Positions 4,652 through 36,103 of a stretch of DNA of 64,000 nucleotides are shown one piece after another (within the stretch, counting starts at the first letter, position 1; each line of letters opens with the position of its first letter). The notes below the pieces were generated by a model. That model searched no databases and had not been told where the DNA came from. It saw only the letters and a program-made list of their open reading frames with translations. Source of the DNA: Escherichia coli (GTDB taxonomy: Bacteria > Pseudomonadota > Gammaproteobacteria > Enterobacterales > Enterobacteriaceae); assembly GCF_013315695.1 (NCBI RefSeq), contig NZ_CP054353.1; one strand, 5' to 3'. Position numbers and translations under genes: made by a program.

Positions 4652-7507
4652 TTACAGCGCGGCGATAACAGCCTGCTGTTCAATCAGCTTAGCTTTCGCT
4701 TCTGCATAGCCTTCCAGCTTCTCACGCTCTTTCGCGATGACCGCTTCCGGTGCGCGGGCGACAAAGCCTTCATTCGCCAGCTTGTTCTCGATACGGCTGA
4801 TTTCGCCTTCGATCTTCGCCACTTCTTTCGCCAGACGCGCCAGCTCATCTTCTTTGTTGATGAGGCCAGCCATCGGGATCAGCAGCTCTGCGCCGTCGAT
4901 GATCTTCGTAACGGAAACCGGACCTTTGTCATCGGCAGGCAGCACGGTGATGCTTTCCAGACGCGCCAGGGTTTGCAGGAAGCCACGGTTTTCATTTACG
5001 CGACGTTCTGCATCCGCGCTGCAACCACGCAGCAGCAGCTCCAGCGGTTTGCCCGGCGCGATATTCATTTCTGCACGGATGTTACGTACGGCAACGATCG
5101 CCTGTTTCAGCCACTCGGTGTCGGCCAGCGCCGCTTCATCAACCTGAGACGCATCATACTGCGGGAACGGCTGCAGCATGATGGTGTCGGCAGTGATACC
5201 GCAAAGTACTTTCACACGCTGCCAGATGGTTTCGGTGATGAACGGAATGATCGGATGCGCGAGGCGCAGCAGACCTTCCAGTACAGTCACCAGCGTATGG
5301 CGAGTACCGCGCAGTTCGGCGTCTGTTCCACCGTTCATTACCGGCTTGGTCAGCTCCAGATACCAGTCGCAGAACTGGTTCCAGGTGAACTCATACAGAA
5401 TGCCTGCGGCGATATCGAAGCGGAAGCTGTCCAGCGCTTCGCGGTACGCTTTGATGGTCTGGTTGAACTCCGCCAGAATCCAGCGATCCGCCAGCGACAG
5501 CGTCATTTCACCGCCGTTAAAGCCGCAATCCTGACCTTCTGTGTTCATCAGCACAAAGCGGCTGGCGTTCCACAGCTTGTTACAGAAGTTACGGTAACCT
5601 TCCAGGCGCTTCATATCCCAGTTGATGTCACGACCGGTAGAAGCCAGTGCCGCCAGGGTGAAACGCAGCGCGTCAGTACCGTGCGGCTCAATACCGTTCG
5701 GGAACTGCTTCTCGGTGCGCTTACGGATTTTGTCCGCCAGCTGCGGCTGCATCATATTGCCGGTACGTTTCTCCAGCAGTTCCGGCAGCGAAATACCGTC
5801 AACCATATCCAGCGGGTCAATAACGTTACCCTTGGATTTGGACATCTTCTGACCTTCGTCATCACGAATCAGACCAGTCATGTAAACGGTGTGGAACGGC
5901 ACCTGCGGTTTGCCATTTTCATCTTTGATGAAGTGCATGGTCATCATGATCATGCGGGCAATCCAGAAGAAGATGATGTCGAAGCCGGATACCATCACGC
6001 TGGTTGGGTGGAACTGACGCAGGGCGTCGGTGTTTTCCGGCCAGCCAAGGGTAGAGAAGGTCCACAGCGCAGAAGAGAACCAGGTGTCGAGAACGTCTTC
6101 GTCCTGACGTAGAGCAACGTCGGCACCGAGGTTATTTTCTTTACGCACTTCATCTTCGTTGCGGCCAACATAAACGTTACCCGCTTCGTCGTACCATGCC
6201 GGGATACGGTGACCCCACCACAGCTGACGAGAGATACACCAGTCCTGAATATCGCGCATCCAGGAGAAGTACATGTTTTCGTACTGCTTCGGTACGAACT
6301 GAATGTCGCCGTTCTCAACCGCTTCAACCGCCGGTTTCGCCAGTACATCGGCACGCACGTACCACTGGTCGGTCAGCATTGGTTCGATAACTACGCCGCC
6401 ACGGTCGCCGTAAGGAACGGTCAGGTCGTGCGGTTTAATTTCTTCCAGCAGGCCGAGTGCGTCAACCGCAGCAACGACCGCTTTACGTGCAGCAAAACGC
6501 TCGAGTTTCTGGAACTCTGCCGGGATTTCGCTGGAATAAACGTCAGATTCGTTACCTTTGGTATCGAACACCTGGGCGCTTTCACGGATATCGCCGTCAA
6601 AGGTCAGGATGTTGATCATCGGCAGCGCGTGACGTTTACCCACTTCATAGTCGTTAAAGTCGTGCGCCGGAGTGATTTTCACGCAGCCGGTGCCTTTTTC
6701 CATGTCGGCGTGTTCGTCGCCAACGATCGGAATACGACGGTTAACCAGCGGCAGAATGACATATTTGCCAATCAGATCTTTGTAACGCGGATCTTCCGGG
6801 TTAACGGCTACGCCAGTATCGCCCAGCAGGGTTTCCGGACGGGTAGTCGCGACCACCAGATAATCTTTACCGTCTGCGGTTTTCGCACCGTCAGCCAGCG
6901 GATAGCGGATGTGCCACATCGAACCTTTCGATTCGCGGTTTTCCACTTCCAGGTCAGAGATAGCGGTGCGCAGTTTCGGGTCCCAGTTTACCAGGCGTTT
7001 GCCACGGTAAATCAGGTCTTCTTTATATAGACGAACGAAAACTTCTTTCACCGCATTGGACAGGCCTTCGTCCATCGTGAAGCGTTCACGCTCCCAGTCG
7101 ACGGAGTTGCCGAGACGGCGCATCTGACGGGTAATGGTGCCGCCGGACTCCGCTTTCCATTCCCAGATTTTGTCGATGAAAGCTTCGCGGCCGTAGTCGT
7201 GACGGGTTTTACCTTCTTCTGCGGCAATCTTGCGCTCAACGACCATCTGGGTAGCGATCCCAGCGTGGTCAGTACCGACCTGCCACAGGGTGTTTTTGCC
7301 CTGCATGCGCTGATAGCGGATCATGGTATCCATGATGGTTTGCTGGAAGGCGTGACCCATATGCAAACTGCCGGTGACGTTCGGCGGCGGGATCATGATG
7401 CAGAAACTCTCCTGGCTTTCATCGCCATTAGGCTTAAAGTAGCCCTGCTTTTCCCAGTGCTCGTAAAGCGGCTGTTCGATATCTTGTGGGTTATATGTCT
7501 TTTCCAT
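4652..7507 (-). CDS. valS: valine--tRNA ligase
   Basis: 951 aa with class I synthetase HMGH and KMSKS motifs and C-terminal coiled coil. Confidence 0.97.
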
Positions 7508-7950
7508 TATTTCCAGGTTGCCGTATTCAGGTTGAAACCAGCCACGCGGTAGGCTTTATAGCGTTCGCGCGCCAGTTGTTTCAGAGAATCTTCATAAGGA
7601 ACGAAGTCTACCACTTCTGTGAAAGCGGTGGCAAAATCTGCAAAGCTTGTTCGCAGACTAATCAATATATCGTGCGGGCTGCTGCTGCGTTTTTGCGGCC
7701 AGGCGATCTCCACCGGCGCACCGCCGCGCGGTCCTTCTCCCGCTAAATTATGCGGAACAAAGCTTTCTGCCGGACGCGCCCATAGGGCTTCATCCAGCCG
7801 GTAAGCCTGCTTTTCATCTTCACAGGCGATGAGCACGCGCTTACCGCTGCGCCAACGTTCTGCGGCAATTTCACACACCAGTTGCTCAACGGCGCTTAAG
7901 CCATCGACGGTGGTGTCATTGTCCAGAAGGTAGAACGTCGCGTTTTTCAT
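7507..7950 (-). CDS. holC: DNA polymerase III chi subunit
   Basis: 147-aa protein matching HolC; immediately upstream of valS with overlapping stop/start. Confidence 0.93.
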
Positions 7951-7984
7951 AAATGGGGCTTCTTGTGGTGGATTTAAATACGCA

Positions 7985-8300
<316 letters not shown>

Positions 8301-8303
8301 CAA

Positions 8304-9818
<1,515 letters not shown>

Positions 9819-10081
9819 CTACGCTCCTGAATCTTAAAGACAACGGCGGTGGCTACAGATAGAATTGCAAGCTTTCGTAACTCATGTCCGCTGTTGCGAT
9901 GACTTCGTGTTAATCTTAACGTTATTACGGCATTGGCACGTCAGAACAAAATCTGAGAGGTGAATCCGTTGAGTATAATTATCTTAGCGACGATTTCGAC
10001 GACTCAAGAGAATAAATGACGTTTAAGCCATGAAACAAGCTAAAATCCTGCAAAAGACGAGTTTTTACGGGCGTATTTAAA

Positions 10082-11182
10082 GTGATAATCATAAGATATC
10101 TGGTGCGGGAGACGCTCAAAAGCCAGCTGGCGATACTCTTCATCTTGCTTTTGATCTTCTTCTGTCAAAAGTTAGTGAGGATCCTCGGCGCAGCGGTTGA
10201 CGGCGATATTCCGGCGAATCTGGTGCTCTCCCTTCTCGGGTTGGGCGTGCCGGAAATGGCGCAGCTTATCCTGCCATTAAGCCTGTTCCTCGGGCTGCTG
10301 ATGACGCTGGGCAAACTGTATACCGAAAGTGAAATTACGGTAATGCATGCCTGCGGCCTGAGCAAAGCGGTTCTGGTGAAAGCGGCAATGATCCTTGCGG
10401 TATTCACGGCAATCGTCGCGGCGATTAACGTGATGTGGGCGGGACCGTGGTCATCGCGTCATCAGGATGAAGTGTTAGCAGAAGCGAAAGCGAACCCTGG
10501 CATGGCGGCGCTGGCGCAAGGGCAATTCCAGCAAGCGACTAATGGCAGTTCGGTGCTGTTCATCGAAAGCGTTGACGGCAGCGATTTCAAAGATGTGTTC
10601 CTCGCGCAAATTCGACCAAAAGGTAATGCACGTCCTTCTGTGGTGGTGGCCGATTCCGGACATTTAACCCAGCTGCGCGACGGCTCCCAGGTCGTCACTC
10701 TCAACCAGGGAACGCGCTTCGAAGGCACTGCACTGTTACGTGATTTCCGCATTACGGATTTCCAGGATTATCAGGCGATCATTGGTCACCAGGCGGTGGC
10801 GCTCGACCCGAACGATACCGACCAGATGGACATGCGCACATTGTGGAACACTGACACCGATCGTGCTCGCGCAGAACTGAACTGGCGTATCACGTTGGTA
10901 TTCACCGTGTTTATGATGGCACTTATGGTCGTACCGCTGAGCGTGGTTAACCCACGTCAGGGACGCGTACTGTCGATGCTGCCAGCCATGCTGCTGTATC
11001 TACTTTTCTTCCTGATCCAGACCTCCCTGAAATCGAACGGCGGTAAAGGTAAGCTGGACCCGACGCTGTGGATGTGGACCGTTAACCTGATTTATCTGGC
11101 TTTGGCGATTGTTCTCAACCTTTGGGACACCGTGCCGGTCCGCCGCCTGCGCGCCAGTTTTTCGCGTAAAGGAGCGGTGTGA
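10082..11182 (+). CDS. lptF: LPS export ABC transporter permease LptF
   Basis: 366-aa membrane permease; synteny divergent from pepA. Confidence 0.93.
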   Translation: MIIIRYLVRETLKSQLAILFILLLIFFCQKLVRILGAAVDGDIPANLVLSLLGLGVPEMAQLILPLSLFLGLLMTLGKLYTESEITVMHACGLSKAVLVKAAMILAVFTAIVAAINVMWAGPWSSRHQDEVLAEAKANPGMAALAQGQFQQATNGSSVLFIESVDGSDFKDVFLAQIRPKGNARPSVVVADSGHLTQLRDGSQVVTLNQGTRFEGTALLRDFRITDFQDYQAIIGHQAVALDPNDTDQMDMRTLWNTDTDRARAELNWRITLVFTVFMMALMVVPLSVVNPRQGRVLSMLPAMLLYLLFFLIQTSLKSNGGKGKLDPTLWMWTVNLIYLALAIVLNLWDTVPVRRLRASFSRKGAV

Positions 11183-12264
11183 TGCAACCTTTTGGCGTAC
11201 TTGACCGCTATATCGGTAAAACTATTTTCACCACCATCATGATGACGCTGTTCATGCTGGTGTCGCTGTCGGGCATTATCAAGTTTGTCGATCAGCTGAA
11301 AAAAGCCGGGCAGGGGAGTTACGACGCGTTAGGCGCAGGAATGTATACCTTGCTGAGCGTGCCGAAAGATGTGCAGATCTTCTTCCCGATGGCGGCTCTG
11401 CTTGGGGCGTTGCTTGGTCTTGGGATGCTGGCGCAGCGCAGCGAACTGGTGGTGATGCAGGCTTCTGGTTTTACCCGTATGCAGGTGGCGCTGTCGGTGA
11501 TGAAAACCGCCATTCCGCTGGTCTTACTGACGATGGCGATTGGCGAATGGGTCGCGCCGCAGGGCGAGCAGATGGCGCGTAACTACCGTGCGCAGGCGAT
11601 GTACGGCGGCTCGTTGCTCTCTACCCAGCAAGGCTTATGGGCGAAAGATGGCAACAACTTCGTCTACATTGAGCGGGTTAAAGGTGACGAAGAGTTAGGT
11701 GGCATCAGCATTTATGCCTTTAACGAGAATCGTCGTCTGCAATCCGTACGCTATGCCGCTACTGCGAAGTTTGACCCGGAACATAAAGTCTGGCGTCTGT
11801 CGCAGGTTGATGAATCTGATCTGACCAATCCGAAACAGATTACCGGTTCGCAGACGGTGAGCGGCACCTGGAAAACCAACCTCACGCCTGACAAACTGGG
11901 CGTGGTGGCGCTGGACCCGGATGCACTCTCTATCAGCGGTTTGCACAACTATGTGAAGTATCTGAAGTCGAGCGGTCAGGATGCCGGACGTTATCAGCTC
12001 AACATGTGGAGCAAAATCTTCCAGCCGCTATCTGTGGCGGTGATGATGCTGATGGCGCTGTCGTTCATCTTTGGCCCACTGCGTAGCGTACCGATGGGCG
12101 TGCGTGTGGTCACCGGTATCAGTTTCGGTTTTGTCTTCTACGTACTGGACCAGATCTTCGGCCCGCTGACGTTGGTTTATGGCATCCCGCCGATCATCGG
12201 CGCACTGTTGCCAAGCGCCAGCTTCTTCTTAATCAGCCTGTGGCTGTTAATGAGAAAATCGTAA
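11182..12264 (+). CDS. lptG: LPS export ABC transporter permease LptG
   Basis: 360 aa; ATG overlaps lptF stop (TGATG), consistent with translational coupling. Confidence 0.93.
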   Translation: MQPFGVLDRYIGKTIFTTIMMTLFMLVSLSGIIKFVDQLKKAGQGSYDALGAGMYTLLSVPKDVQIFFPMAALLGALLGLGMLAQRSELVVMQASGFTRMQVALSVMKTAIPLVLLTMAIGEWVAPQGEQMARNYRAQAMYGGSLLSTQQGLWAKDGNNFVYIERVKGDEELGGISIYAFNENRRLQSVRYAATAKFDPEHKVWRLSQVDESDLTNPKQITGSQTVSGTWKTNLTPDKLGVVALDPDALSISGLHNYVKYLKSSGQDAGRYQLNMWSKIFQPLSVAVMMLMALSFIFGPLRSVPMGVRVVTGISFGFVFYVLDQIFGPLTLVYGIPPIIGALLPSASFFLISLWLLMRKS

Positions 12265-12278
12265 CCGAATGAACGAAT

Positions 12279-12306
12279 AAAGGGAGCGAAAGCTCCCTTT
12301 ATTATT
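12279..12306 (+). terminator. Rho-independent terminator after lptG
   Basis: Hairpin aaagggagc-gaa-agctcccttt followed by a T-rich tail. Confidence 0.65.
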
Positions 12307-12374
12307 GTTAGCAAAGTGTGCTTCGTTCATTCCTGAAAAATAATTAAAATTCAATATATTGCAGTGGGGTGGGC

Positions 12375-12412
12375 ATGATAAGACGCGCCAGCGTCGCATC
12401 AGGCAAAGACAA
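12375..12412. repeat. REP-like palindromic element
   Basis: gataagacgcgccagcgtcgcatcaggc motif shared with the REP units at 7985-8300. Confidence 0.45.
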
Positions 12413-13928
12413 ATCTCGCCTGACTTACCTTCTTCTCCCCCCCCAGCAAACTCCCCAACATCCCGCGTACAATCTGATTCGTCACCTGGCGAGCGGCGCT
12501 TTTGGCCATTGTTTGCACCACACCATCTTTCTTCCCGCCGCGTGGTCCGGTAGTGCCGAACAAAATATCCTTCAATCCACCAAGAATGCCGTCATCCACC
12601 GCTACCTCTTTCCCTTTCGCGGGGGGATTATTTTGCTGCTCGGTACTGGCCTGAAAGCCTTTTTGCAACATCTCATAGGCGGATTCCCGGTCCACCTCAT
12701 CCTCATATTTGCCATACACCGGAGAGTGATTAATCAAGCCATTACGCTCATCTTCCGTCACCGGTCCCATCCGCGAACAAGGCGCAATCACCATCGCCCG
12801 TTCCACCACAGAAGGGCTTCCTTTCGCATCCAGAAAAGAGATCAACGCCTCGCCGGTGCCCAGTTTCTGAATCGCCTTTTCGGTATCAAATGCCGGATTG
12901 ACCCGCATGGTTTGCGCCGCAGCTTTTACCGCTTTCTGATCTTTGGGCGTAAAAGTCCGCAAAGCGTGTTGAACGCGATTACCGAGCTGGCCGAGCACGT
13001 TATCCGGAATATCGGACGGATTTTGCGAAACGAACCAGACGCCCACGCCTTTTGAGCGAATAAGCCTTATCACCTGCTCAATCTTATCCAGCAGTACCTG
13101 CGGTGCATCGTTAAACAGCAGATGTGCCTCGTCGAAGAAAAACACCAGTTTTGGTTTCTCCAGATCGCCCGCTTCCGGCAATTGTTCATACAACTCCGAG
13201 AGCATCCACAACAGGCTGGCGGCATACAGTTTCGGCATCTGATAAAGCTTCTCGGCGCTGAGGATATTGATAACGCCTTTACCGTTGGCATCGGTGCGCA
13301 TCCAGTCTTTGATATCCAGCATCGGCTCACCAAAGAAGTGTGCTGCGCCTTGCTGTTCCAGCGACAACAGCCCGCGCTGGATGGCACCAACCGATGCGCT
13401 ACTGATATTTCCGTACTGATTCTGGAAAGATTTGGCGTTATCGCCGATGTATTGGGTAATCGCCCGCAAATCTTTAAAGTCGAGCAGTAACAGCCCCTGA
13501 TCGTCAGCAATGCGGAAGATGATATTCAGCACGCCAGATTGCACATCGTTGAGATTCAACAGCCGCGCCAGCAACAGCGGCCCCAGATCCGAAACCGTCG
13601 CCCGCACCGGATGGCCTTTCTCGCCAAAGATATCCCACACCACCACCGGATTGGCATGCGGTTGCCAGTCATTGACGCCGATATTTTTAAGCCTTGTGAG
13701 CAGTTTTTCCGACGCCGTTCCTGCCTGCGCGATACCGGTCAGATCGCCTTTCACATCAGCCATAAACACCGGCACGCCGATTTCCGACAATGACTCTGCC
13801 AGTTTTTGCAGCGTAACGGTTTTACCCGTCCCCGTTGCGCCAGTAATCAGCCCGTGACGGTTAGCCATTCCCGGCAGTAAAAACAGTTCTGTGTCCGGCG
13901 TGCGGGCAATTAACAGGGGTTCGCTCAT
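12399..13928 (-). CDS. yjgR: DUF853 family P-loop NTPase
   Basis: Walker A GATGTGKT; start set at MSEPLL with GGAGG RBS to give about 500 aa. Confidence 0.85.
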
Positions 13929-14055
13929 GAGATTTCCTCCAGTTCCTGCCTGGAGTATAGGCAACGGCTGTGCACTCTTCACCGCTAAATTCAGCAGATT
14001 GCGAGACGCCTTCCAAAGAGATTTAAGTGCCGGGCGACAGCACCCGGCAAAGGGA

Positions 14056-15075
14056 TCAGAAGTCAGCTTTCAGGACTACTCGGTAGCGAGCTTTACCATC
14101 GCGTACATGCTGAATGGCGTCGTTAATTTTCGACATCGGGAACAGTTCGGTTGTCGGCGCAACCTTGCTGCGGGCGGCAAAGCGCATCAGCTTTCGCAGC
14201 TCATAAGGCGTGCCGGTAGCAGAACCAGAGATGCTGCGGTCGCCCGCAATTAACGTAAAGGCCGGAACAGACAGCGGCGTGAGAACCGCACCGACCGTAT
14301 GGAAATTACCGCCATAGGTCAGCGCCTCAAAATAAGGCTGCCAGTCGAGGCTGACGTTCACAGTATTGATAATGAGATCAAACTGCCCCGACAGGGCTTT
14401 CAGTGCCTGCGGATCGCGGCTATTCACCACTTTATCGGTACCCATCGCCAGTACTTCCTGCTCTTTCGCCGGATTAGAACTAAAGGCCGTCACCTCGCAT
14501 CCCATTGCGTGCAGAAGTTTTATAGCGATATGCCCCAGCCCGCCAATACCAATTACCCCAACGCGGCTGGTAGCAGTGATATGGTGCATCAACAGTGGTT
14601 TAAAGACCGTGATACCGCCGCACAACAGCGGCCCGGCGGACTCGATATCAATATTTTCTGGCAGTGGAATCACCCATTGCCAGTCCGCACGCAACTTCTC
14701 GGCAAAGCCACCGCGATTCATAATCGTCGGCACCGCACCTTGCTCGCAGTTGATCTGATTACCGCTAATACAGGCGTCGCAGTGACCACAGCTACGCGCC
14801 GTCCAGCCAATCCCGACACGCTGACCGACCTGCAAACCTTTATCCTGCGCGGCGCTCCCGAGTGCCACCACGCGCCCAATCACCTCATGCCCGGCAACCA
14901 GCGGATATTGTGAAAATCCCCATTCGTTATCGATCATCGACAGATCGGAATGACAAATCCCGCAGTAATCCACCTGCACTTCAACATCTTGTGGCTTCAG
15001 CTCACCGGGATCGTACTCATAAACTTCCAGTTCGCCGCCCGCTTCTTTTGCGGCATAGCTTTTTATCATCGACAT
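14056..15075 (-). CDS. ahr: NADPH-dependent aldehyde reductase, zinc-type alcohol dehydrogenase family
   Basis: Zn-binding GHE and CGxCxxC motifs plus GxGxxG Rossmann motif; start set at MSMIKSYAA (339 aa). Confidence 0.9.
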
Positions 15076-15270
15076 TTTTGGGTCCTTCTCTGGTGTTGTT
15101 TGGGAAGTGTAGAGCATGGCAGGGCGGGGTGCCTGGAGTGTGACAAAGGTTACATATCGCTGAGTGTAATGCTGAAAATTTCAGCACTTAGCGAGGTGGG
15201 TGCAAGCTGGCGCTTGCATGGTGGCGTGCGACAGGTATAATCCACAACGTTTTCCGCATACCTCTTCAGT

Positions 15271-15355
15271 GCCGAAGTGGCGAAATCGGTAGACGCAGTT
15301 GATTCAAAATCAACCGTAGAAATACGTGCCGGTTCGAGTCCGGCCTTCGGCACCA
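15271..15355 (+). tRNA. leuX: tRNA-Leu (anticodon CAA)
   Basis: 85-nt sequence gccgaagtggcgaaatcggtagacgc...ggcacca with long variable arm and CAA anticodon loop, ending in CCA. Confidence 0.92.
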
Positions 15356-15357
15356 TC
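15313..15357 (+). repeat. Direct repeat copy 1 (leuX 3-prime end, attachment-site core)
   Basis: 45 bp identical except one mismatch to 25708-25752. Confidence 0.8.
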
Positions 15358-15889: not shown

Positions 15890-17098
15890 ATGAAATCTGT
15901 AGAACTATTTGCCGGTGCTGGTGGCTTGGCTATGGGTTGCGAAATTGCTGGTTTTGAGCATCTTGCAGTCGTTGAATGGGATAAATGGGCCTGTGATACC
16001 GTTAGAGAGAACAAAAAGAATGGCTTTCCGCTGTTGTCTGATTGGGATCTTTTTGAGGGTGATGTAAGAGAATTTGATTGGTCGAAAATCCCTAAAGGGA
16101 TTGACCTTCTTGCGGGAGGGCCACCTTGCCAGCCATTTTCAATCGGTGGTAAGCACAAGGCTAATTCTGATTCGCGGGACATGTTTCCAGCGACAGCAGA
16201 AGCGATCAGGCAAATTCGCCCTAAGGCTTTCATCGTCGAGAATGTGAAAGGCTTAACACGGGCAACCTTTGCGAGCTATTTCCAGTACATCCAGTTACAG
16301 CTTGAGTTTCCAGAAGTAGCCCCGCGAAATGGCGAAGACTGGAGCGAGCATTTAAAACGCTTGCAGGAAGAAAAAACCAGTGGAAAGAACAAAGGGAGAG
16401 GGCTGACGTATAACGTTCTGGCTACGTTAGTCAATGCAGCAGACTACGGCATCCCACAAAAACGTGAGCGTGTCTTCATTGTTGGCTTCCGCGATGATCT
16501 TGAAATTGAGTGGTCGTTCCCTAAACCGACACACAGTTATGATGCACTCGTTTATGATCAGTGGGTTACTGGTGATTACTGGAAACGACATGGTTTAGAA
16601 ATGCCAACTGTTCCAAGCCAGATGGTTAACCGTATCGCAAAATTGCGTAAAAATCCTCCCGATACACTTCCGTGGAAAACTGTTCGAGATGCAATCGCGG
16701 ATTTGCCAGATCCTGAAACAAAGGCGGCAAAGATGATCCGGAATCATGCGTTCCAGGCGGGGGCACGAACTTATCCCGGTCATACCGGAAGCCCCTTAGA
16801 TCTGCCAGCTAAAACGCTCAAAGCAGGTGCTCATGGCGTTCCTGGGGGCGAGAACATGCTTGTTCGTGATGATGGCTCAGTACGCTATTTTACTGTGCGA
16901 GAAAGTGCCAGAATTCAAACATTTCCCGATAGTTATCGTTTTCACGGGAGTTGGACTGAAACTATGAGGCAGTTAGGTAACGCTGTGCCGGTTCATTTGG
17001 CGTATTGCGTTGCCAGCAGTGTAGCGGAAAAGCTGCTGACCTCTGAAATTGGGAACATCCTTAAGCAGGGTGGCAATTATAAAAGGGCTTCTGCATGA
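15890..17098 (+). CDS. DNA (cytosine-5)-methyltransferase, Type II R-M modification subunit
   Basis: Motif I FAGAGG, motif IV GGPPCQPFS, motif VI ENVKGL; start set at MKSVELF with GGAG RBS. Confidence 0.88.
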   Translation: MKSVELFAGAGGLAMGCEIAGFEHLAVVEWDKWACDTVRENKKNGFPLLSDWDLFEGDVREFDWSKIPKGIDLLAGGPPCQPFSIGGKHKANSDSRDMFPATAEAIRQIRPKAFIVENVKGLTRATFASYFQYIQLQLEFPEVAPRNGEDWSEHLKRLQEEKTSGKNKGRGLTYNVLATLVNAADYGIPQKRERVFIVGFRDDLEIEWSFPKPTHSYDALVYDQWVTGDYWKRHGLEMPTVPSQMVNRIAKLRKNPPDTLPWKTVRDAIADLPDPETKAAKMIRNHAFQAGARTYPGHTGSPLDLPAKTLKAGAHGVPGGENMLVRDDGSVRYFTVRESARIQTFPDSYRFHGSWTETMRQLGNAVPVHLAYCVASSVAEKLLTSEIGNILKQGGNYKRASA

Positions 17099-17745
17099 CA
17101 GGAAAGGTCATACCATTTAATCCACTTGATAAACAAAATTTAGGTGCCAGCGTTGCGGAAGCCTTATTGAGCAAAGATGCTCATCCTCTGGAGGAGTTAA
17201 CCTCATTTCAAGGAGCAGGGATTTACGCAATTTATTACACTGGCGATCATCCTGCTTATAGGCAACTGGCAGAACTGAATCGTGACGGGCAATTTCGATT
17301 GCCTATCTACGTGGGTAAGGCCGTCCCAGCAGGGGCGAGAATGGGGCTTACCAACCCTGATAAGGTTGGTAACGTTCTGTTTAGGCGCTTGAAAGAACAT
17401 GCAGAAAGTATTCGCGCAGCGGAAAATCTTTCGATTGAAGATTTTTATTGTCGATTTTTGGTTGTTGATGACATCTGGATCCCATTGGGAGAATCGCTGG
17501 TTATCTCTCGCTTTAAACCGATTTGGAATTCGTCTATTGATGGTTTCGGTAATCATGACCCAGGTAAGCATCGCTACACTGGTTTACGTCCTCGCTGGGA
17601 CTTTATGCACCCGGGGAGAGGATGGGCTCAAAATTTACGTGAGCGTGATGAAACTGTGGATGAACTCATTCGTGATTCTATACAGTATCTTCAGAATTTA
17701 CCGCCTTGCTTGGCTCAGAAATTTATCGAAGCTGAAGGCGATTAA
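17095..17745 (+). CDS. GIY-YIG family restriction endonuclease (Eco29kI-like)
   Basis: GIYAIYY ... YVGKA motifs; 216 aa; start overlaps the methyltransferase stop (ATGA). Confidence 0.6.
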   Translation: MTGKVIPFNPLDKQNLGASVAEALLSKDAHPLEELTSFQGAGIYAIYYTGDHPAYRQLAELNRDGQFRLPIYVGKAVPAGARMGLTNPDKVGNVLFRRLKEHAESIRAAENLSIEDFYCRFLVVDDIWIPLGESLVISRFKPIWNSSIDGFGNHDPGKHRYTGLRPRWDFMHPGRGWAQNLRERDETVDELIRDSIQYLQNLPPCLAQKFIEAEGD

Positions 17746-17866: not shown

Positions 17867-18442
17867 TCAAATATCAGGGAGTTGCAAGAACGACTTAAGT
17901 CGGTAGAAGGTTGCTTTGCTGATCTCTAACCTATCCTGGACCGCTGCTGGTGGTAATCCTCGTGCTAATAACTCACGTACTTGTTCAACGGTTGCTTTGA
18001 TCGGTCTGCCGCAATGCTTACCTTCCGACTGAGCTCGTTTGATTCCTGCGGCTCTACGCTCTGCGATTAGGTCTTTTTCCAGGCTGGCAAGTCCTGCCAT
18101 CATAGTGAGCATGGCTTTACCCACTGGTGTTGAAAGATCAAACCCCTCTCGCAAGCTGACAACCTTCACACCCTTCATTTGCAACATTTCAACAGTAGAT
18201 AGTACATCGATAGTGTTACGTCCCAAGCGGTTTATAGCAATCACGATCAGCGTATCGCCTTCTCGCACATAATTGAGTAGTTCAGCAAACCCTGGACGCT
18301 CTCCTGCCTTGATTGCACCACTCACCGCTTCATCACTAAACCAGCGAGTTACGCTATAACCAGCATCGGCTATCTGCTTCTTCTGGTTTTCAACGTTTTG
18401 ATCGCTGGTGGAAACTCGCACATATCCGATCACAGTTGTCAT
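17867..18442 (-). CDS. serine recombinase (resolvase/invertase family)
   Basis: N-terminal GYVRVSTSDQ catalytic serine motif and C-terminal HTH; 191 aa. Confidence 0.88.
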   Translation of the reverse strand: MTTVIGYVRVSTSDQNVENQKKQIADAGYSVTRWFSDEAVSGAIKAGERPGFAELLNYVREGDTLIVIAINRLGRNTIDVLSTVEMLQMKGVKVVSLREGFDLSTPVGKAMLTMMAGLASLEKDLIAERRAAGIKRAQSEGKHCGRPIKATVEQVRELLARGLPPAAVQDRLEISKATFYRLKSFLQLPDI

Positions 18443-21995: not shown

Positions 21996-22955
21996 TCAGT
22001 GTGCTTTTAGTTCATCTTTAGCTAATGAGTCATAGAGTATTTTTGTGAGCGGAGACTCTAAATAATCATCACTAAGTAGTTTAATAAAATGCTTTTGGGA
22101 TTCTTTTGTTTTTACGAGCAATTGTGTGCCGTCTTCACTTACAATTAAAACTGTTGAAAGATAGGTATGCTTGCTTACATAATCGATAATTTCTGGCACA
22201 TCAATTTTCCCCAGTACAGGTGAGTGTTTGGCAATTTTGGCAAGCTTCCTTGAGAAAGAAATTTCTTTTGCACTCTTCTCAAGGTGAGTAAGATCTTCGA
22301 TAAGCAATGAAGCTTTCAATGCTTCCAAAGCCACCGTTGCTTGAGCTTCAATAACCTGATGGAACTGCATCGTTATTTCTAAAGTTTTTTGATTTTTTAT
22401 CAGGAATTCGTCGTCTATAAGAGCCAAGTCATAATTATAATCTAATCGGAACACTTGGGTTGGCAATTCTTTTAAATACCCGTCTGCGTCTGGTATCAAG
22501 TTAAACAATTTTCGGCTTTGCTCAAAAACCATGAGGTTTGTTTTGTTCTTATACAATGACAAACACTTATTGTTGCCTCTTAACTGAATTATTATCCCTT
22601 TCACGTCAGTAAATTTATTATTTAAATCATAATAATCCTGAGAGTTAGGCGGTATGGCTATTGCATTTTTTATAAAATCAAACTCTTTTGGATGTTCTTC
22701 ATAATCAAATGCAAACAAGGCATTTTTTCTATCATCAAAATTCGAAAGGAGAGGAATGGTTAAATCCTCATTTGTCACAATGTCGTCGTAAAGCCTAATT
22801 TTGAATCCTTCAACAATTTTTGGTAAAGCTTCAGCATCTATTTTAGATAATTTTAATTCATAATTATCTTCAGTTTTAACTATAAAGATAATTCTTATAC
22901 CTGAGAAATTATCGAAAATTTCGGTGATTTGATTTTTAAAATTCACAGGGGTCAT
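21996..22955 (-). CDS. 319-aa soluble protein, KwaB-like (candidate Kiwa component)
   Basis: Co-oriented with and overlapping the membrane protein gene; size and order match the Kiwa KwaA-KwaB arrangement. Confidence 0.55.
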   Translation of the reverse strand: MTPVNFKNQITEIFDNFSGIRIIFIVKTEDNYELKLSKIDAEALPKIVEGFKIRLYDDIVTNEDLTIPLLSNFDDRKNALFAFDYEEHPKEFDFIKNAIAIPPNSQDYYDLNNKFTDVKGIIIQLRGNNKCLSLYKNKTNLMVFEQSRKLFNLIPDADGYLKELPTQVFRLDYNYDLALIDDEFLIKNQKTLEITMQFHQVIEAQATVALEALKASLLIEDLTHLEKSAKEISFSRKLAKIAKHSPVLGKIDVPEIIDYVSKHTYLSTVLIVSEDGTQLLVKTKESQKHFIKLLSDDYLESPLTKILYDSLAKDELKAH

Positions 22956-23572
22956 TATTTTTTCCTTGCTATGAAAACGTAGTCATCAAAAAAACTATAG
23001 AATACTTGATCGTCAACAGTCAGCACATCCATCGAGATTGCAATGACGTTTTTTACTTCACCACTTCCTGCATGAGAAATGTTAACTCTATACAACTTAT
23101 AACCGAAAAGCGCCAAAGTAGGATTCGCATAATACTTATCCGTTTTAATGAAAATTAAACCAATAACTACTATTAAGAGAAAGTACGCAATGTTTTTCTG
23201 AGGGTCATCAAAACTGAATCCCATAAAAGGTACTATGTAAGTTGCTAAGAAAGTCAAACTTTCATAGCTCTCACTTTGGCAAGCAGTGATTGTTACACAG
23301 TCAGCATTGTTGACCTTCGTCAATCCTTTAAACCTTCTATAGAAATAAAATGCTATTCCTATAAAAATTAAACAAATTATTGAGATTATGTTGCTGGAAG
23401 CTAATTGATAAAAACCTATAAAATGGCAGGAAGAGCCATAACAAAATGGGATTTTTGCGCTCAAAATGATAATAAAAACAAACAGCAACATTAAAGACAG
23501 TATGTATAGTCCCATCTTGTTGAATGTGCTTTTTCGTTTCATGTTATCCCCCAGTGATGAAATCATAATCAA
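22955..23572 (-). CDS. four-TM membrane protein, KwaA-like (candidate Kiwa component)
   Basis: 205 aa with four hydrophobic helices; AT-rich; stop overlaps start of downstream gene. Confidence 0.6.
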   Translation of the reverse strand: MIMISSLGDNMKRKSTFNKMGLYILSLMLLFVFIIILSAKIPFCYGSSCHFIGFYQLASSNIISIICLIFIGIAFYFYRRFKGLTKVNNADCVTITACQSESYESLTFLATYIVPFMGFSFDDPQKNIAYFLLIVVIGLIFIKTDKYYANPTLALFGYKLYRVNISHAGSGEVKNVIAISMDVLTVDDQVFYSFFDDYVFIARKK

Positions 23573-25707: not shown

Positions 25708-25752
25708 ACCGTAGAAATACGTGCCGGTTCGAGCCCGGCCTTCGGCACCATC
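25708..25752 (+). repeat. Direct repeat copy 2 (partial leuX 3-prime end)
   Basis: accgtagaaatacgtgccggttcgagcccggccttcggcaccatc matches tRNA 3-prime end 15313-15357 with one mismatch. Confidence 0.8.
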
Positions 25753-25948: not shown

Positions 25949-27126
25949 ATGGCTCTGAGTGATGTGAAGGTTCGTTCGGCTAAGCCTGAAGCAAAAGCCT
26001 ATAAGCTGACCGACGGTGAAGGCATGGTTTTGCTGGTTCACCCTAACGGCTCCAAATACTGGCGGCTACGTTATCGCTTTGGCGGTAAAGAGAAGATGCT
26101 GGCATTGGGGAAATACCCCGAAGTGTCGTTGGCGGATGCCAGGGCACGCCGGGATGAGGCTCGTAAGCTTTTAGCTAATGGTGTCGATCCCAGTGAAAAC
26201 AAGAAAGCTGTTAAGGTAGAATAGGAACAAGAGGCGATAACGTTTGAAGTAGTCGCCAGAGACTGGCACGCCAGCAATCAGAAGTGGTCGGCATCGCATA
26301 GCGCTCGTGTTTTGAAAAGTCTGGAGGATAATCTCTTTACTGCTATCGGTAAGCGGAACATTGCGGAACTGAAGACGCGGGATCTTCTTGTACCCATTAA
26401 AGCAGTCGAGTCATCCGGGCGGCTCGAAGTTGCCGCCCGTTTACAGCAGCGTACTACCGCGATTATGCGCTTTGCCGTTCAGAGCGGCTTAATCGACTAC
26501 AACCCCGCGCAAGAGATTGCAGGTGCGGTTGCTACGGCGAAAAGACAGCACCGTGCAGCTCTTGAACTGAACCGTATACCTGAATTACTTCATCGCATAG
26601 ATCACTATTCTGGCAGACCGTTAACTCGACTGGCGGTTGAACTCACTTTATTGGTTTTCATCCGTTCGAGCGAGCTGCATTTTGCCCGCTGGTCAGAAGT
26701 AGATTTTGAAACGGCTATGTGGACAATCCCAGGTGAGCGTGAGCAACTGGAAGGAGTCAAGCATTCTCAGCGTGGCTCGAAGATGCGGACACCACACCTT
26801 GTACCTTTGTCGCGGCAGGCCCTAAGTATTTTGGAAAAGATCAAAAGCATGAGCGGAAATTGAGAGCTGATTTTTGTGGGCGATCACGATCCACGTAAGC
26901 CGATGAGTGAGAATACGGTGAACAAGGCTTTGCGCGTAATGGGGTATGACACGAAGGTCGAGGTTTGTGGGCATGGCTTCAGGACGATGGCTTGTAGTTC
27001 GTTGATTGAGTCGGGATTATGGTCGAGGGATGCGGTAGAGCGGCAGATGAGTCACCAGGAGCGTAGCTCTGTGCGAGCCGCTTACATCCATAAGGCGGAA
27101 CATCTTGGGGAGCGTAGGTTGATGTT
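25949..27126 (+). pseudogene. intB: P4-type integrase, fragmented and truncated by IS911
   Basis: N-terminus MALSDVKVRSAKPEAKAYKLTDGEG; reading frame broken into three ORFs; 3-prime end replaced by IS911 left end. Confidence 0.8.
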
Positions 27127-27198
27127 TGAAGTGGCACACTGAATTTGGCCACCTGAACAGAGGTGATATGCTCACCTCAGAACAACACAGGTGCTCCA

Positions 27199-28364
<1,166 letters not shown>

Positions 28365-30109
28365 CCACTTCAAACGGACTGGGAGAACAGGTACAACATG
28401 TGCTGAATGATAATCCCTTCTCCGGTCACCTGTTTATCTTCCGTGGCCGACGGGGTGACACCGTCAAAATTCTTTGGGCTGATGCTGATGGTCTGTGCCT
28501 GTTCACCAAACGCCTGGAGGAAGGCCAGTTTATCTGGCCTGCGGTACGTGACGGCAAGGTATCCATTACCCGCTCGCAACTGGCAATGCTCCTCGATAAG
28601 CTGGACTGGCGTCAGCCAAAAACATCCAGCCGTAACTCACTGACAATGTTGTAAAAAACTCCTGACCGCATTATAAAAACGGTCATGAGTCAGAAATACC
28701 TCATTCGCATCGCAGAGCTGGAAAGGTTGCTCTCTGAGCAGGCTGAAGCCCTCCGTCAGAAAGACCAGCAACTGAGTCTGGTTGAAGAGACGGAAGCCTT
28801 CCTGCGCTCTGCACTGACACGTGCCGAAGAAAAGATCGAAGAAGATGAACGGGAAATAGAACATCTGCGGGCTCAGATAGAAAAACTGCGCCGGATGCTG
28901 TTCGGTACCCGTTCTGAAAAACTGCGTCGTGAAGTTGATCTGGCTGAGGCTCTGCTGAAACAACGTGAACAGGACAGCGATCGTTACAGTGGGCGGGAAG
29001 ACGATCCTCAGGTTCCCCGCCAGTTGCGACAGTCGCGCCATCGTCGTCCGTTACCGGCACACCTTCCCCGTGAAATACACCGCCTGGAGCCAGAAGAAAG
29101 CTGTTGCCCGGAGTGTGGCGGTGAGCTGGATTATCTGGGGGAAGTCAGCGCTGAACAGCTGGAACTGGTGAGCAGTGCCCTGAAAGTGATCCGCACAGAA
29201 CGGGTAAAAAAAGCCTGTACAAAATGTGACTGTATTGTTGAAGCACCGGCGCCGTCCCGCCCGATAGAGCGTGGTATCGCGGGCCCCGGATTACTTGCCC
29301 GCGTGTTAACGGGAAAATACTGCGAACATCTGCCACTGTATCGTCAGAGTGAAATCTTTGCCCGCCAGGGTGTCGAACTGAGCCGGGCCTTACTCTCCAA
29401 CTGGGTTGACGCGTGCTGCCAGTTAATGACACCGGTGAATGATGCCCTGTACCGTTATGTAATGAACACCCGCAAGGTTCACACTGATGACACACCGGTA
29501 AAGGTACTGGCACCGGGTCAGAAAAAGGCGAAAACAGGGCGTATCTGGACGTATGTCCGGGATGATCGCAATGTGGGTTCGTCATCTCCTCCAGCGGTCT
29601 GGTTCGCGTACTCGCCGAACCGGCAGGGGAAACACCCGGAGCAACACCTCCGCCCCTTCCGGGGTATCCTGCAGGCGGATGCGTTCACAGGTTACGACAG
29701 GTTGTTCAGTGCAGAACGTGAAGGTGGTGCACTGACAGAAGTTGCGTGCTGGGCCCATGCCCGGCGAAAAATCCACGATGTATACATCAGCAGCAAAAGT
29801 GCGACGGCAGAAGAAGCCCTGAAGCGAATCAGTGAACTGTACGCCATCGAGGATGAAATACGGGGATTACCGGAGTCAGAGCGTCTTGCCGTCAGGCAGC
29901 AGCGAAGCAAAGTGTTACTGACGTCGCTGCATGAATGGATGGTGGAGAAGAATGGTACGCTGTCGAAAAAATCCAGACTGGGCGAAGCGTTCAGCTATGT
30001 ACTGAATCAGTGGGATGCCCTCTGTTATTACAGTGATGACGGTCTGGCGGAGGCGGATAATAATGCTGCGGAAAGAGCGCTTCGTGCAGTCTGTCTCGGA
30101 AAGAAAAAC

Positions 30110-31560
30110 TCTTATGACCTTTGTCAAATATTAAGCCCAAAAAGACCTACGCAGCTCCGGGAGCTTCGTTATATCGCGGATTAAAGAACCTGAAACAGTC
30201 AGACTGTATCTTGGATTTTACAAACTCTTATTCGGGGATTTTAGCCCCATGACGATTTACGCAGTGAGCTGGCCTCTTTCTATATGCAGGTATTGGCGCA
30301 TTCTGACCTCCTGAATTCTTTTACGAGGATCACTCATTCCGTGTCTGACTGCTTCAGGGTTTAATTTTGCTTCTGCTGACTGAATGATGATTGGGCAGCA
30401 AGTGCAATATCCCACATAAATCCAGTCAACTCACGAGCCACCGCCGTAATGGCTACTTGTGATTTTTTCCCTTTTGCTGTCAGACTTCGGTAACGAGAAC
30501 ACAATCGTTGTTGAGCTTTCCATGCAATATCTTTGGAATATTGTGTTACAGAATCCGGTCGGTAATATATAAGCCATGCACCAACTTTTGCAGGTGTACG
30601 ATAAGACCAGGCGGCTTCGTAAAGCAGACGTCTCAGTTCGCTGTTTCCAACTTTTGTTATTCCTCTGGGACGAATACTGTTTCCACTGGAATATTCACCT
30701 GGCACCAGTCCCAGAAAAGCCATGAGCTGTTTGGGACTGGAAAATCGCGAAAAATCACCCAGTTCAGCAACCAGGGTTATTGCAATTAGCTGACCAACAC
30801 CTTTTAGAGCCTGCAACTGGCAGACCAGATTGCACAGAGACCACTCAGGTAACAGGCGAGATATTTCCTGGTCGAGTTGAAGTATGCGATCTTCAATCTG
30901 CTCCAGACTTTGACAATAGTGTTGAAAAGCAATCTGCTGAGATGGCTGACTAAATGATTGATTAGCTAACCAGGTTCGATGTTTGCCGGTCCAGTGCTTC
31001 CCTGCATAACGTTTGTCTGTTCGCAATAGCATGCTCAGAATTCGCTGTCGGGCAACTCTGCTGTCTCGTTTAGCTGCTGCACGGGCTCTGATTAGATCCC
31101 GCATAGCTTCATGAGTCAGGTCAGGGATCCAGACAGGGGTAAGTTCACCAGCCCGCAGTAACCTGGCAAGAGAAATTGCGTCCCGATGATCATTTTTGAT
31201 TCTGTCTGTCGGTGATTTTGGTATCCGGGAAGGGGCAATAACCTGGCATTTTATATTCATCGCTGTGAGTTGATGATATAGCCCAAAACCACAGGGGCCA
31301 GCCTCATAGCAGGAAAGAATGTTTCCGTAAAGTCCCTGCAATTTCTGAAATAATCGACGTACAGCCTGGGCTTCGTTGTTAATCGTACCATAATAACGAA
31401 CTTCGCCAAGCCGTTCAGGTGCAGCAATAGCAACCGCCAACGTTTCTTTATGTACATCCAGCCCGATGTAAGCTGCAATATTTTCCGAATGCATAATGAC
31501 CTCCTCTGGAATATCCCACCAATGCTATAGTGAGTATATAAAGGTCATACCATCTTTATG
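30110..31560 (-). mobile_element. IS110-family insertion sequence nested in IS66 tnpC
   Basis: Boundaries from the break in the IS66 TnpC reading frame; encodes a DEDD-type transposase; 251-bp non-coding region 3-prime of the transposase. Confidence 0.7.
30361..31494 (-). CDS. IS110-family DEDD transposase/recombinase
   Basis: N-terminal YIGLDVHK RuvC-like motif typical of the IS110 family; 377 aa. Confidence 0.8.
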   Translation of the reverse strand: MHSENIAAYIGLDVHKETLAVAIAAPERLGEVRYYGTINNEAQAVRRLFQKLQGLYGNILSCYEAGPCGFGLYHQLTAMNIKCQVIAPSRIPKSPTDRIKNDHRDAISLARLLRAGELTPVWIPDLTHEAMRDLIRARAAAKRDSRVARQRILSMLLRTDKRYAGKHWTGKHRTWLANQSFSQPSQQIAFQHYCQSLEQIEDRILQLDQEISRLLPEWSLCNLVCQLQALKGVGQLIAITLVAELGDFSRFSSPKQLMAFLGLVPGEYSSGNSIRPRGITKVGNSELRRLLYEAAWSYRTPAKVGAWLIYYRPDSVTQYSKDIAWKAQQRLCSRYRSLTAKGKKSQVAITAVARELTGFMWDIALAAQSSFSQQKQN

Positions 31561-31726
31561 TTCTTTGGCAGCGATCACGGCGGCGAGCGTGGAGCACTGT
31601 TGTACGGGCTGATCGGCACCTGCCGTCTGAACGGTATCGATCCGGAAGCGTATCTGCGCCATATCCTGAGCGTACTGCCGGAATGGCCTTCCAACCGAGT
31701 TGATGAACTGCTGCCATGGAACGTAG

Positions 31727-32468
<742 letters not shown>

Positions 32469-32655
32469 TCAGTTTATCCCCGCAGTGGCAAAGTGTTCGC
32501 TTTTGCCGACTGGACAGTGGCAGTGCCTGTCTCTACTGCGCCATCGCTGAACAGTGCAGAATTAGCAACGTTTGCTTTTGGCACAAAGCATACGCCCATT
32601 CTCACGCGAATGCTTTGCCCTTGACTTGCCAACAACCGAATTGCTTGCTCTGCAG

Positions 32656-33948
32656 CTATGTTTTTTTATTAGAATATTCGCCACTAAATAAATTATAATA
32701 AGTTGATTTTATTAGATATCTATCAGAATCTATATGGTCAGCACGAGTTGCATGCTCTAATGTTTCAAATGCCAGGGTATGTGCGGCTTCAGCAAATATC
32801 TCAGGCCAACCTTTACTCAGCATCGACAGTCCTTTAAGGACTCTTATCTGAATCTCCCTCATACTGGCACCATCGCGCGCGACAGGTGAGAAAAAGTCTT
32901 CCAGTAGATCGTTATTCTGAAGTGGTGCAACATGTACTGAAGGATATTTCACTTCTATTTCATCAGATTTATTCTGCGCGTAAGTGGAAAGTATACGAAC
33001 ACCTCTGCCAATGACATCAATGGCGGTTCCAGGATCGTTCACTGCAGGGGAAAGGGCCCGGCAGGCTATTTCGGCCATGACGCTAAGACAAAATCGAGGA
33101 TCCTGAGCAAATGAACGTGCATCCGAGACAATAATCGTCTCAAGTAAATCGGTGTTGATTGACGACTCCTGGCCCTGACTCAGGTACAAAACTGGCATGG
33201 ACGGATGTATGAAACTGCCTGGCTGCGCCACGAGGTATACATGACGGGGATCATTGGTCAGCAGCTTGCTAAGTTTCACCATATCAATATATTCAACATA
33301 GCCAATCTTCTTCGGATAAACTGCAACCGTTCCTTTCGGCTGTTCATTGTTCTCAAGCCATGGATATCCGCCGAGACAGGGATTTCTTGCTCTCGCAATA
33401 AATGTTTCGATGGCCGCCTGTTCTACTTGTGCCGTTGTCTCACCAACCCTCCCCAGAGAGGTCAAATGCTGTATCCAGCGAAGCAATGTGATGAGGATTA
33501 AGGCAATGACAACCAGTGTGACAATGAATAAAATGACTCTCCCCCTTTCTCCATAAGCTCCCATATTGAGGGCAATAATCCCTACCAGACTGAAGAGAAA
33601 AGAACCGATGAAGGTGGCCAGTACATTTTGTGTGGTGACGTCTTCAACAACTAAACGCGTAGCTCTGGGAGTCACATTAGTAGTGGCTGAACCGTAGGCT
33701 GTGACCATGATACTCAGCGAAAATGTGGTCACTGCCAGCATACTCGATGCCAGTATGTTCAGAATGTTATCGACTGCTTCCGCACCAACCTTCACGGAAA
33801 CCGACTCAGGTATCATTGATTTAAAAAGAATTGATAAAAGGGCCGTTATTATCGCGACAATTGCGAATAACGTTGCCCTGAACCATAGTTTTTTAATTGT
33901 CTGCTTCAGCATCCATTTCCAGCGTGAAATCATTCTGCATTCCCTCAT
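32656..33948 (-). CDS. DUF2254-like integral membrane protein
   Basis: N-terminal multi-TM region followed by large soluble domain; 430 aa. Confidence 0.55.
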   Translation of the reverse strand: MRECRMISRWKWMLKQTIKKLWFRATLFAIVAIITALLSILFKSMIPESVSVKVGAEAVDNILNILASSMLAVTTFSLSIMVTAYGSATTNVTPRATRLVVEDVTTQNVLATFIGSFLFSLVGIIALNMGAYGERGRVILFIVTLVVIALILITLLRWIQHLTSLGRVGETTAQVEQAAIETFIARARNPCLGGYPWLENNEQPKGTVAVYPKKIGYVEYIDMVKLSKLLTNDPRHVYLVAQPGSFIHPSMPVLYLSQGQESSINTDLLETIIVSDARSFAQDPRFCLSVMAEIACRALSPAVNDPGTAIDVIGRGVRILSTYAQNKSDEIEVKYPSVHVAPLQNNDLLEDFFSPVARDGASMREIQIRVLKGLSMLSKGWPEIFAEAAHTLAFETLEHATRADHIDSDRYLIKSTYYNLFSGEYSNKKT

Positions 33949-33995
33949 ATTGCGGCCGGGATAATAATTGCCGCCCCCAGGACGGCATGTTGCTA

Positions 33996-35999: not shown

Positions 36000-36103
36000 T
36001 TATTCCATTAATTAAATTCGCACTGGATAGAAGGTACTACCTCTCACAAAGTAGCAAAGTTCAACTGGCTATGCGGCGTTAATCGTAATGCATGGTGGAA
36101 TGT

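Follow-up and report, generated by a model that had tools for sequence, protein, structure and literature searches.

The window analysed here, a 64-kb stretch of Escherichia coli DNA (64,000 nucleotides), very probably has, at the ahr/yjgR junction, the idn-less form of a presence/absence polymorphism; at this site K-12 holds the five-gene L-idonate (idn) cluster. Lacking idn is not the same as having recently deleted it: judged from its sequence, the spacer between the two genes is an intact, conserved intergenic region and not a deletion scar.

The original prediction had placed only about 127 bp between yjgR and ahr and had read the two genes as adjacent on the same strand. The sequence and the list of open reading frames bore this out, with a spacer of exactly 127 bp (13929-14055) and both genes on the minus strand. 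The start codon of yjgR (CAT on the plus strand) occupies 13926-13928 and the stop codon of ahr occupies 14056-14058. The features at the junction are as follows.

12399..13928, minus strand: yjgR, encoding a P-loop ATPase with a HerA-like C-terminal domain, 509 aa (ORF list, Pfam, RefSeq annotation)
13929..14055, minus strand: yjgR-ahr spacer, 127 bp, the idn-less ('empty') state of the slot
14056..15075, minus strand: ahr (yjgB), encoding an NADPH-dependent aldehyde reductase (NCBIfam, RefSeq annotation)
15271..15355, plus strand: leuX, tRNA-Leu(CAA), immediately beyond ahr, an integration hot spot (ARAGORN, Rfam tRNA)

The identity of both genes was clear. YjgR matched the Pfam family PF05872 (HerA_C) over its full length (E = 1.1e-252, 839.6 bits, model positions 3-502 of 502), and Ahr scored 550.5 bits against the NCBIfam equivalog NF047908, for which the cut-off is 470, covering model positions 1-335 of 335. 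Two further E. coli genomes, UMNK88 and EcPF7, carry this gene pair in their RefSeq annotation, and in EcPF7 the coordinates are also identical. The neighbourhood consists of pepA, ytgA, lptF and lptG on the yjgR side and of leuX on the ahr side.

A difference from K-12 was seen at the 3' end of yjgR (window about 12399-12440), where the window has a run of eight Gs and K-12 one of seven. The additional G shifts the frame of the final codons, and the C-terminus of the protein, GGRRR* in K-12 (500 aa), becomes a different 14-letter ending in the window (509 aa). The 500-aa form is found in E. albertii and Citrobacter. The 509-aa form is probably a real variant and not a sequencing error, because UMNK88 and EcPF7 are annotated with an identical 509-aa protein accession.

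We then compared the junction with that of K-12. It had been claimed that K-12 has idnR-idnT-idnO-idnD-idnK between yjgR and ahr, and that the present strain is without this cluster at the yjgR-ahr site. Both claims held: the annotated order in K-12 DH1 is yjgR, idnR, idnT, idnO, idnD, idnK, ahr, leuX, and the window has its 127-bp spacer in that place and no idn homologue along its 64 kb. BLAST alignment to K-12 DH1 showed that homology breaks at window positions 13966/13967 and 14055/14056. On either side of the break the two genomes form collinear blocks, with 98.6% identity over window 8189-13966 and 97.2% over 14056-15355, and between them 89 bp of the window (13967-14055) stand where K-12 has the 5,087 bp of idnR-idnT-idnO-idnD-idnK. 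One breakpoint lies 38 bp upstream of the yjgR ATG, and the other falls exactly at the ahr stop codon. The idn segment has a G+C content of 47.3%, as against 53.7-55.6% for yjgR, ahr and lptFG. A tblastn search of the whole 64-kb window with the five K-12 Idn proteins returned no idn homologue; the sole match was a weak one of IdnD to Ahr, which are two Zn-dehydrogenase paralogues.

Two further observations concern the sequence at the breakpoints themselves. The last 60 nt of ahr (window 14056-14115) are 78% identical to K-12, with 97-99% identity in the rest of the gene, and are 75-82% identical to the E. albertii, Citrobacter and Enterobacter sequences that we compared. Since manual translation of this stretch gave the same C-terminal residues as in K-12, the differences appear to be synonymous. 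The divergent end of ahr points to a deeply diverged haplotype patch, which abuts the indel breakpoint. A candidate junction repeat was also considered, as MAFFT paired CCGGCAAAGAGA at the left junction of K-12 with CCGGCAAAGGGA next to ahr in the window, and also with a stretch in idnK. This candidate was dismissed, a sensitive BLAST search having given matches of 9-14 nt only, with E >= 0.8, which is chance level.

Whether idn genes are located elsewhere in the genome was addressed with the closest complete genome, that of EcPF7 (NZ_CP054232.1, from position 3405585), a urine isolate from Dallas. EcPF7 is 99.94% identical over the first 50 kb of the window, with 27 substitutions and one indel in those 50 kb. 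We used a chimeric query made of 1.2 kb of leuX-island DNA from the window and 0.96 kb of K-12 idnD, in a megablast search that needs about 85% identity or more. In the complete genome of EcPF7 the island part alone was matched, in one place, with no match to the idnD part. Both parts were matched, in two places, in the positive control E1739. The answer was thus in keeping with the original prediction: idn is found nowhere in the 64-kb window, and EcPF7, a near-identical stand-in for the source genome, is without idnD as judged by megablast.

To see how common the two arrangements are, we counted them in 5,426 complete RefSeq E. coli genomes. With a 1.2-kb junction query, for which we scored a full-length match at 93.6-100% identity, yjgR and ahr were contiguous as in the window in 3,212 genomes (59%). 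The K-12 idn segment gave a match of any kind in 2,055 (38%), in none of which it was plasmid-borne, and the contiguous K-12 yjgR-idnR junction was found in 2,052. Because the cluster is joined to yjgR in 2,052 of the 2,055 idn-bearing genomes, idn occurs in E. coli essentially only at the yjgR-ahr site. The empty and idn states are mutually exclusive in E. coli, and about 160 of the 5,426 genomes fit neither of them cleanly. As idn is absent from 3,212 genomes, the K-12 form is therefore the minority one, and 'missing relative to K-12' does not equal 'deleted'. Genomes with the empty state include O157:H7, O55:H7, O111:H8, an O25:H4 (ST131) strain, UMNK88, EcPF7 and ML35, while those bearing idn include K-12, BL21-type strains, strain C, CFT073, UM146 and NCTC86; the polymorphism therefore appears to cut across lineages.

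One genome, MLI104K2 (NZ_CP116925.1; locus coordinates 8395-9322), was considered as a third E. coli allele, with about 930 bp between yjgR and ahr. This interval is annotated with a hypothetical protein and a LacI-family pseudogene, the latter 84-88% similar to idnR. Long runs of poly-G, poly-C and poly-A identify it as corrupted assembly, which rules it out as a real allele, and the interval looks like the garbled consensus of a locus that carries idn. That a public assembly is corrupted at this very site could lend some colour to the idea that the absence of idn in the window is itself an artefact of assembly or of the window, that is, a collapsed or misjoined region, but nothing in it is specific to the window. 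UMNK88, an independent complete genome, has the junction at 100% identity over 1,201 bp, and the junction recurs at 93.6-100% identity in the 3,212 complete genomes. The sequence complexity is normal, and the reading frames are intact on both sides. We give an artefact virtually no credence.

The anatomy of the spacer was examined next, and the following elements were recognized in it.

13929..13966, minus strand: yjgR-proximal segment, 38 bp, common to every allele examined (K-12 homology extends to 13966)
13936-13940, minus strand (CCTCC on the plus strand): Shine-Dalgarno sequence GGAGG, 8 nt before the yjgR ATG
13954-13959, minus strand (AGTATA on the plus strand): -10-like TATACT, inside the conserved motif GTTGCCTATACTCCAGG
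13967..14055, minus strand: segment specific to the empty allele, 89 bp (BLAST breakpoints)
14028..14049, minus strand: terminator-like hairpin immediately following the stop codon of ahr, UGCCGGGUG-CUGU-CGCCCGGCA (RNA fold, terminator scan)

Read along the minus strand, the order is the ahr stop codon, the hairpin, an interrupted U-run, about 60 bp of conserved sequence, GTTGCCTATACTCCAGG, GGAGG and the yjgR ATG. RNA folding gave the hairpin a G+C-rich stem of 9 bp. A terminator pattern scan returned one site, at 14045-14025, which overlaps the hairpin and has an interrupted U-run (CUUAAAUCUCUUU); shuffled sequence averages 0.5 such sites. Pairing of the stem is kept in E. albertii and C. werkmanii, although both the loop and the stem sequences differ. 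The GTTGCCTATACTCCAGG motif is present in E. albertii, in both Citrobacter species and in E. cloacae DSM 26481, and is not evident in Enterobacter sp. Ag1. With Rfam 15, no match was obtained at the gathering score in the spacer (13929-14055), the four matches in the window all lying elsewhere. Since a consensus scan found no sigma-70 consensus promoter in the spacer, and the fold of the spacer as a whole was unremarkable (z-score -1.0), we infer promoter and terminator roles from position and conservation. On these grounds the spacer would combine a putative ahr terminator with the yjgR upstream region, and TATACT is proposed from its conservation as a putative promoter element of yjgR.

We then looked at the same site in other Enterobacteriaceae. 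A YjgR scan of species-representative genomes yielded at least five informative Enterobacteriaceae loci; the matches listed were mostly from Betaproteobacteria, and none among them was from Salmonella. In E. albertii NBRC 107761 and C. werkmanii NBRC 105721, ahr adjoins yjgR, and the spacers align with that of the window along the whole length. The 89-bp segment is 92.3% identical in E. albertii and 66% identical in C. werkmanii, with a strongly conserved core. When compared with the idn cassettes of K-12 and Citrobacter sp. FP75 and with the insert found in Enterobacter, described below, the same 89 bp showed no significant similarity (9-14 nt, E >= 0.8). In Salmonella, LT2 carries idnD as STM4484, and idnDOTK is missing from all Typhi strains examined (PMC6138749).

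These comparisons bear directly on the idea that the strain of the window once had a K-12-like idn cluster and that the cluster was deleted recently and in this lineage specifically. Such an event might be suspected, as K-12 and about 38% of E. coli genomes have idn exactly there and the loss of idn in Typhi has been described in Salmonella studies (PMC6138749). However, inspection of the junction for signs of a deletion scar or of mobile-element excision revealed no idn gene remnant, IS element or direct repeat, and both flanking reading frames are intact. The 89 bp, moreover, are absent from the idn-bearing alleles and have no similarity to them, and the same spacer is present in 3,212 E. 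coli genomes of many lineages, in E. albertii (92%) and in C. werkmanii. The conservation of the spacer across genera therefore effectively excludes a recent deletion in this strain, which we regard as very improbable.

The idn-bearing form could also be followed beyond E. coli. Citrobacter sp. FP75 has the arrangement ahr-idnK-idnD-idnO-idnT-idnR-yjgR, with the gene order of K-12, and its breakpoint on the yjgR side falls at the same nucleotide as in K-12 (between ...GGAC and [G/A]TTGCCTATACTCC). FP75 and K-12 are 78% identical in a contiguous alignment of 9.4 kb that runs through ahr, idn and yjgR, with most flank bins at 80-84%. Because Citrobacter sp. FP75 shares the yjgR-side breakpoint of K-12, the idn-bearing form is taken to be old as well. 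A different gene occupies the slot in Enterobacter cloacae DSM 26481 (locus 7217-8863) and Enterobacter sp. Ag1 (locus 7224-8930), where a single fused Dak1+Dak2 dihydroxyacetone kinase gene (dak) lies between ahr and yjgR. In E. cloacae DSM 26481 the GTTGCCTATACTCC motif is retained at the yjgR-proximal boundary of the dak insert. The Enterobacter arrangement is a third state of the ahr/yjgR site.

The age of the idn-bearing form raises another explanation, in which idn would be ancestral to Escherichia, Citrobacter and Salmonella, and the empty allele would have arisen by one ancient deletion and then spread among species by recombination; the window would in that case show a secondary loss, inherited or imported long ago. 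The gene order and yjgR-side breakpoint shared by the K-12 and FP75 alleles agree with such a history, as do their overall divergence, which is comparable to that of the flanks (78% over 9.4 kb versus 80-84%), and the idnD gene of Salmonella LT2 (PMC6138749). Yet the 89-bp segment of the empty allele has no counterpart in idn-bearing alleles, and a simple deletion therefore cannot generate it. The lower G+C content of idn relative to its surroundings and the presence of a different gene, dak, in the Enterobacter slot also weigh against it. We consider an ancient deletion unlikely, with polarity read from outgroups that amount to a thin sampling of at least five informative Enterobacteriaceae loci.

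We favour the empty form as the uninserted one, because its 89 bp are conserved in E. albertii and C. werkmanii and have no significant similarity to the idn or dak DNA, and because idn has the lower G+C content. The empty form would then be the ancestral-type arrangement and idn an acquired cassette. The distal 89 bp of the spacer are replaced by a 5.09-kb cassette with a lower G+C content (idnK plus idnDOTR) in K-12 and in about 38% of complete E. coli genomes overall. The neighbourhood of leuX is a known recombination hot spot in E. coli. Both forms would be old, and lineages appear to exchange them through homologous recombination in the conserved flanks beside this hot spot. The lineage of the window may either never have had idn or have re-acquired the empty allele.

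A clustering of the flanks by idn state, which would be a sign of whole-haplotype transfer between genera, was sought and rejected: beyond about 60 nt from the junction, the sequences group by genus. Each genus thus has its own flanks around both states. Genus-wise flanks together with both states would fit either a polymorphism of long standing or the recurrent replacement of alleles through homologous recombination. As a tentative extension, which we hold to be possible and still some way from probable, ahr/yjgR may have been a cassette slot for a long time, one that has three or more states (empty, idn and dak) and whose breakpoints are fixed across Escherichia, Citrobacter and Enterobacter. 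In this slot the empty and idn alleles may have coexisted since before the genera split or been repeatedly exchanged, and may be kept by niche-dependent selection on the use of L-idonate. If this were true, the synonymous divergence in the last 60 nt of ahr, which is close to saturation, would be a footprint of that age.

The missing genes encode a defined pathway. IdnT imports L-idonate, IdnD (L-idonate 5-dehydrogenase) oxidises it to 5-keto-D-gluconate, and IdnO (5-keto-D-gluconate reductase) reduces 5-keto-D-gluconate to D-gluconate; IdnK (gluconokinase) phosphorylates gluconate for the Entner-Doudoroff pathway, and IdnR, a LacI-type protein, regulates the idn genes. The L-idonate pathway was reportedly described by Bausch and colleagues in 1998. 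By analogy with K-12, the strain should be unable to take up or catabolise L-idonate or 5-keto-D-gluconate (GntII) and should have neither the subsidiary gluconokinase IdnK/GntV nor the transporter IdnT. By the same analogy, the use of gluconate via GntI, which is encoded outside the window, should be unaffected. This predicted metabolism would be relevant to strain-specific metabolic models and to comparisons of gut colonisation; otherwise the finding matters mainly for correct annotation.

Variability of idn has been reported before. The idnODRKT genes were carried by 83% of the E. coli genomes that were pks-positive and by about 31% of those that were pks-negative, and they were absent from one ST95 clade (PMC8545132). 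In ST131, idnK is missing in H30 and H22 and present in H41 (PMC5369007), and among meat-plant isolates the idn operon was carried by 27 of 34 from equipment and by 15 of 80 from carcasses (PMC10269509). The presence or absence of idn has thus already been linked to particular lineages and niches (PMC8545132, PMC5369007, PMC10269509, PMC6138749). In published pangenome studies of E. coli and Salmonella idn already counts as accessory, and the state of the window is therefore an already known polymorphism, which had been correctly read from the sequence.

The remainder of the window holds several features of separate interest. A 45-nt stretch from the 3' end of leuX is present as a direct repeat (15313-15357 and 25708-25752, 98% identical and 10,395 bp apart), which brackets an integrative element of 10.4 kb. 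The element carries the following genes.

15890-17098 (M) and 17095-17745 (R): Eco29kI-family restriction-modification pair
17867-18442, minus strand: serine recombinase
21996-23542, minus strand: Kiwa anti-phage genes kwaB and kwaA
24310-25587, minus strand: tyrosine integrase

This element, which UMNK88 does not have, lies in tandem before an older leuX island, in which the integrase gene has become a pseudogene (25949-27130). Further along, window 27199-43087 is a patchwork of IS3, IS66, IS110, IS21 and IS1 fragments around a BCCT transporter and a DUF2254 protein. Within the patchwork lies a cluster of a polysaccharide deacetylase, capU, virK and a second lpxM (37468-41365), which we take to resemble the plasmid-borne shf-capU-virK-msbB2 cluster of Shigella and EAEC. 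The same variable region includes the ferric-citrate uptake genes fecIR-fecABCDE (43645-51775) and the start of an Ag43 autotransporter gene (62036-64000), and between these lie an esterase-like phytase-family protein and CP4-57-like genes (a YfjI-family protein and a GTPase). On the yjgR side, two tandem REP-type units between holC and pepA (8058-8133 and 8154-8229) match Rfam naRNA4 (RF02564) and belong to a duplication of roughly 100 bp as compared with K-12. A strong match to Rfam Ysr276, a Yersinia antisense sRNA family, was found at 9063-9257 on the plus strand (180 bits), antisense inside the coding sequence of pepA, and may simply reflect the conservation of pepA.

Among known systems, the GntII/L-idonate locus of K-12 has the same flanks as the window, namely pepA, lptF, lptG and yjgR together with ahr and leuX, in the same order and orientation and at 97-98.6% identity. 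It differs from the window in its five idn genes (5,087 bp), in place of which the window has an unrelated 89-bp intergenic segment. Other idn-less E. coli have the same arrangement as the window: the junction of UMNK88 is identical throughout the 1,201 bp compared, and what varies among UMNK88, EcPF7, O157:H7 and others is the leuX island beyond ahr and not the junction. The spacers of E. albertii and C. werkmanii share with the window the empty arrangement, the hairpin that follows ahr and the GTTGCCTATACTCCAGG motif ahead of yjgR, and differ from it in the 89-bp part (92% and 66% identical, respectively) and in the sequence of the hairpin, the pairing of which is retained. The ahr-dak-yjgR arrangement of Enterobacter has both flanking genes in common with the window, and in E. 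cloacae the yjgR-proximal motif likewise bounds the variable segment; its slot, however, is neither empty nor occupied by idn and holds instead one Dak1+Dak2 kinase gene.
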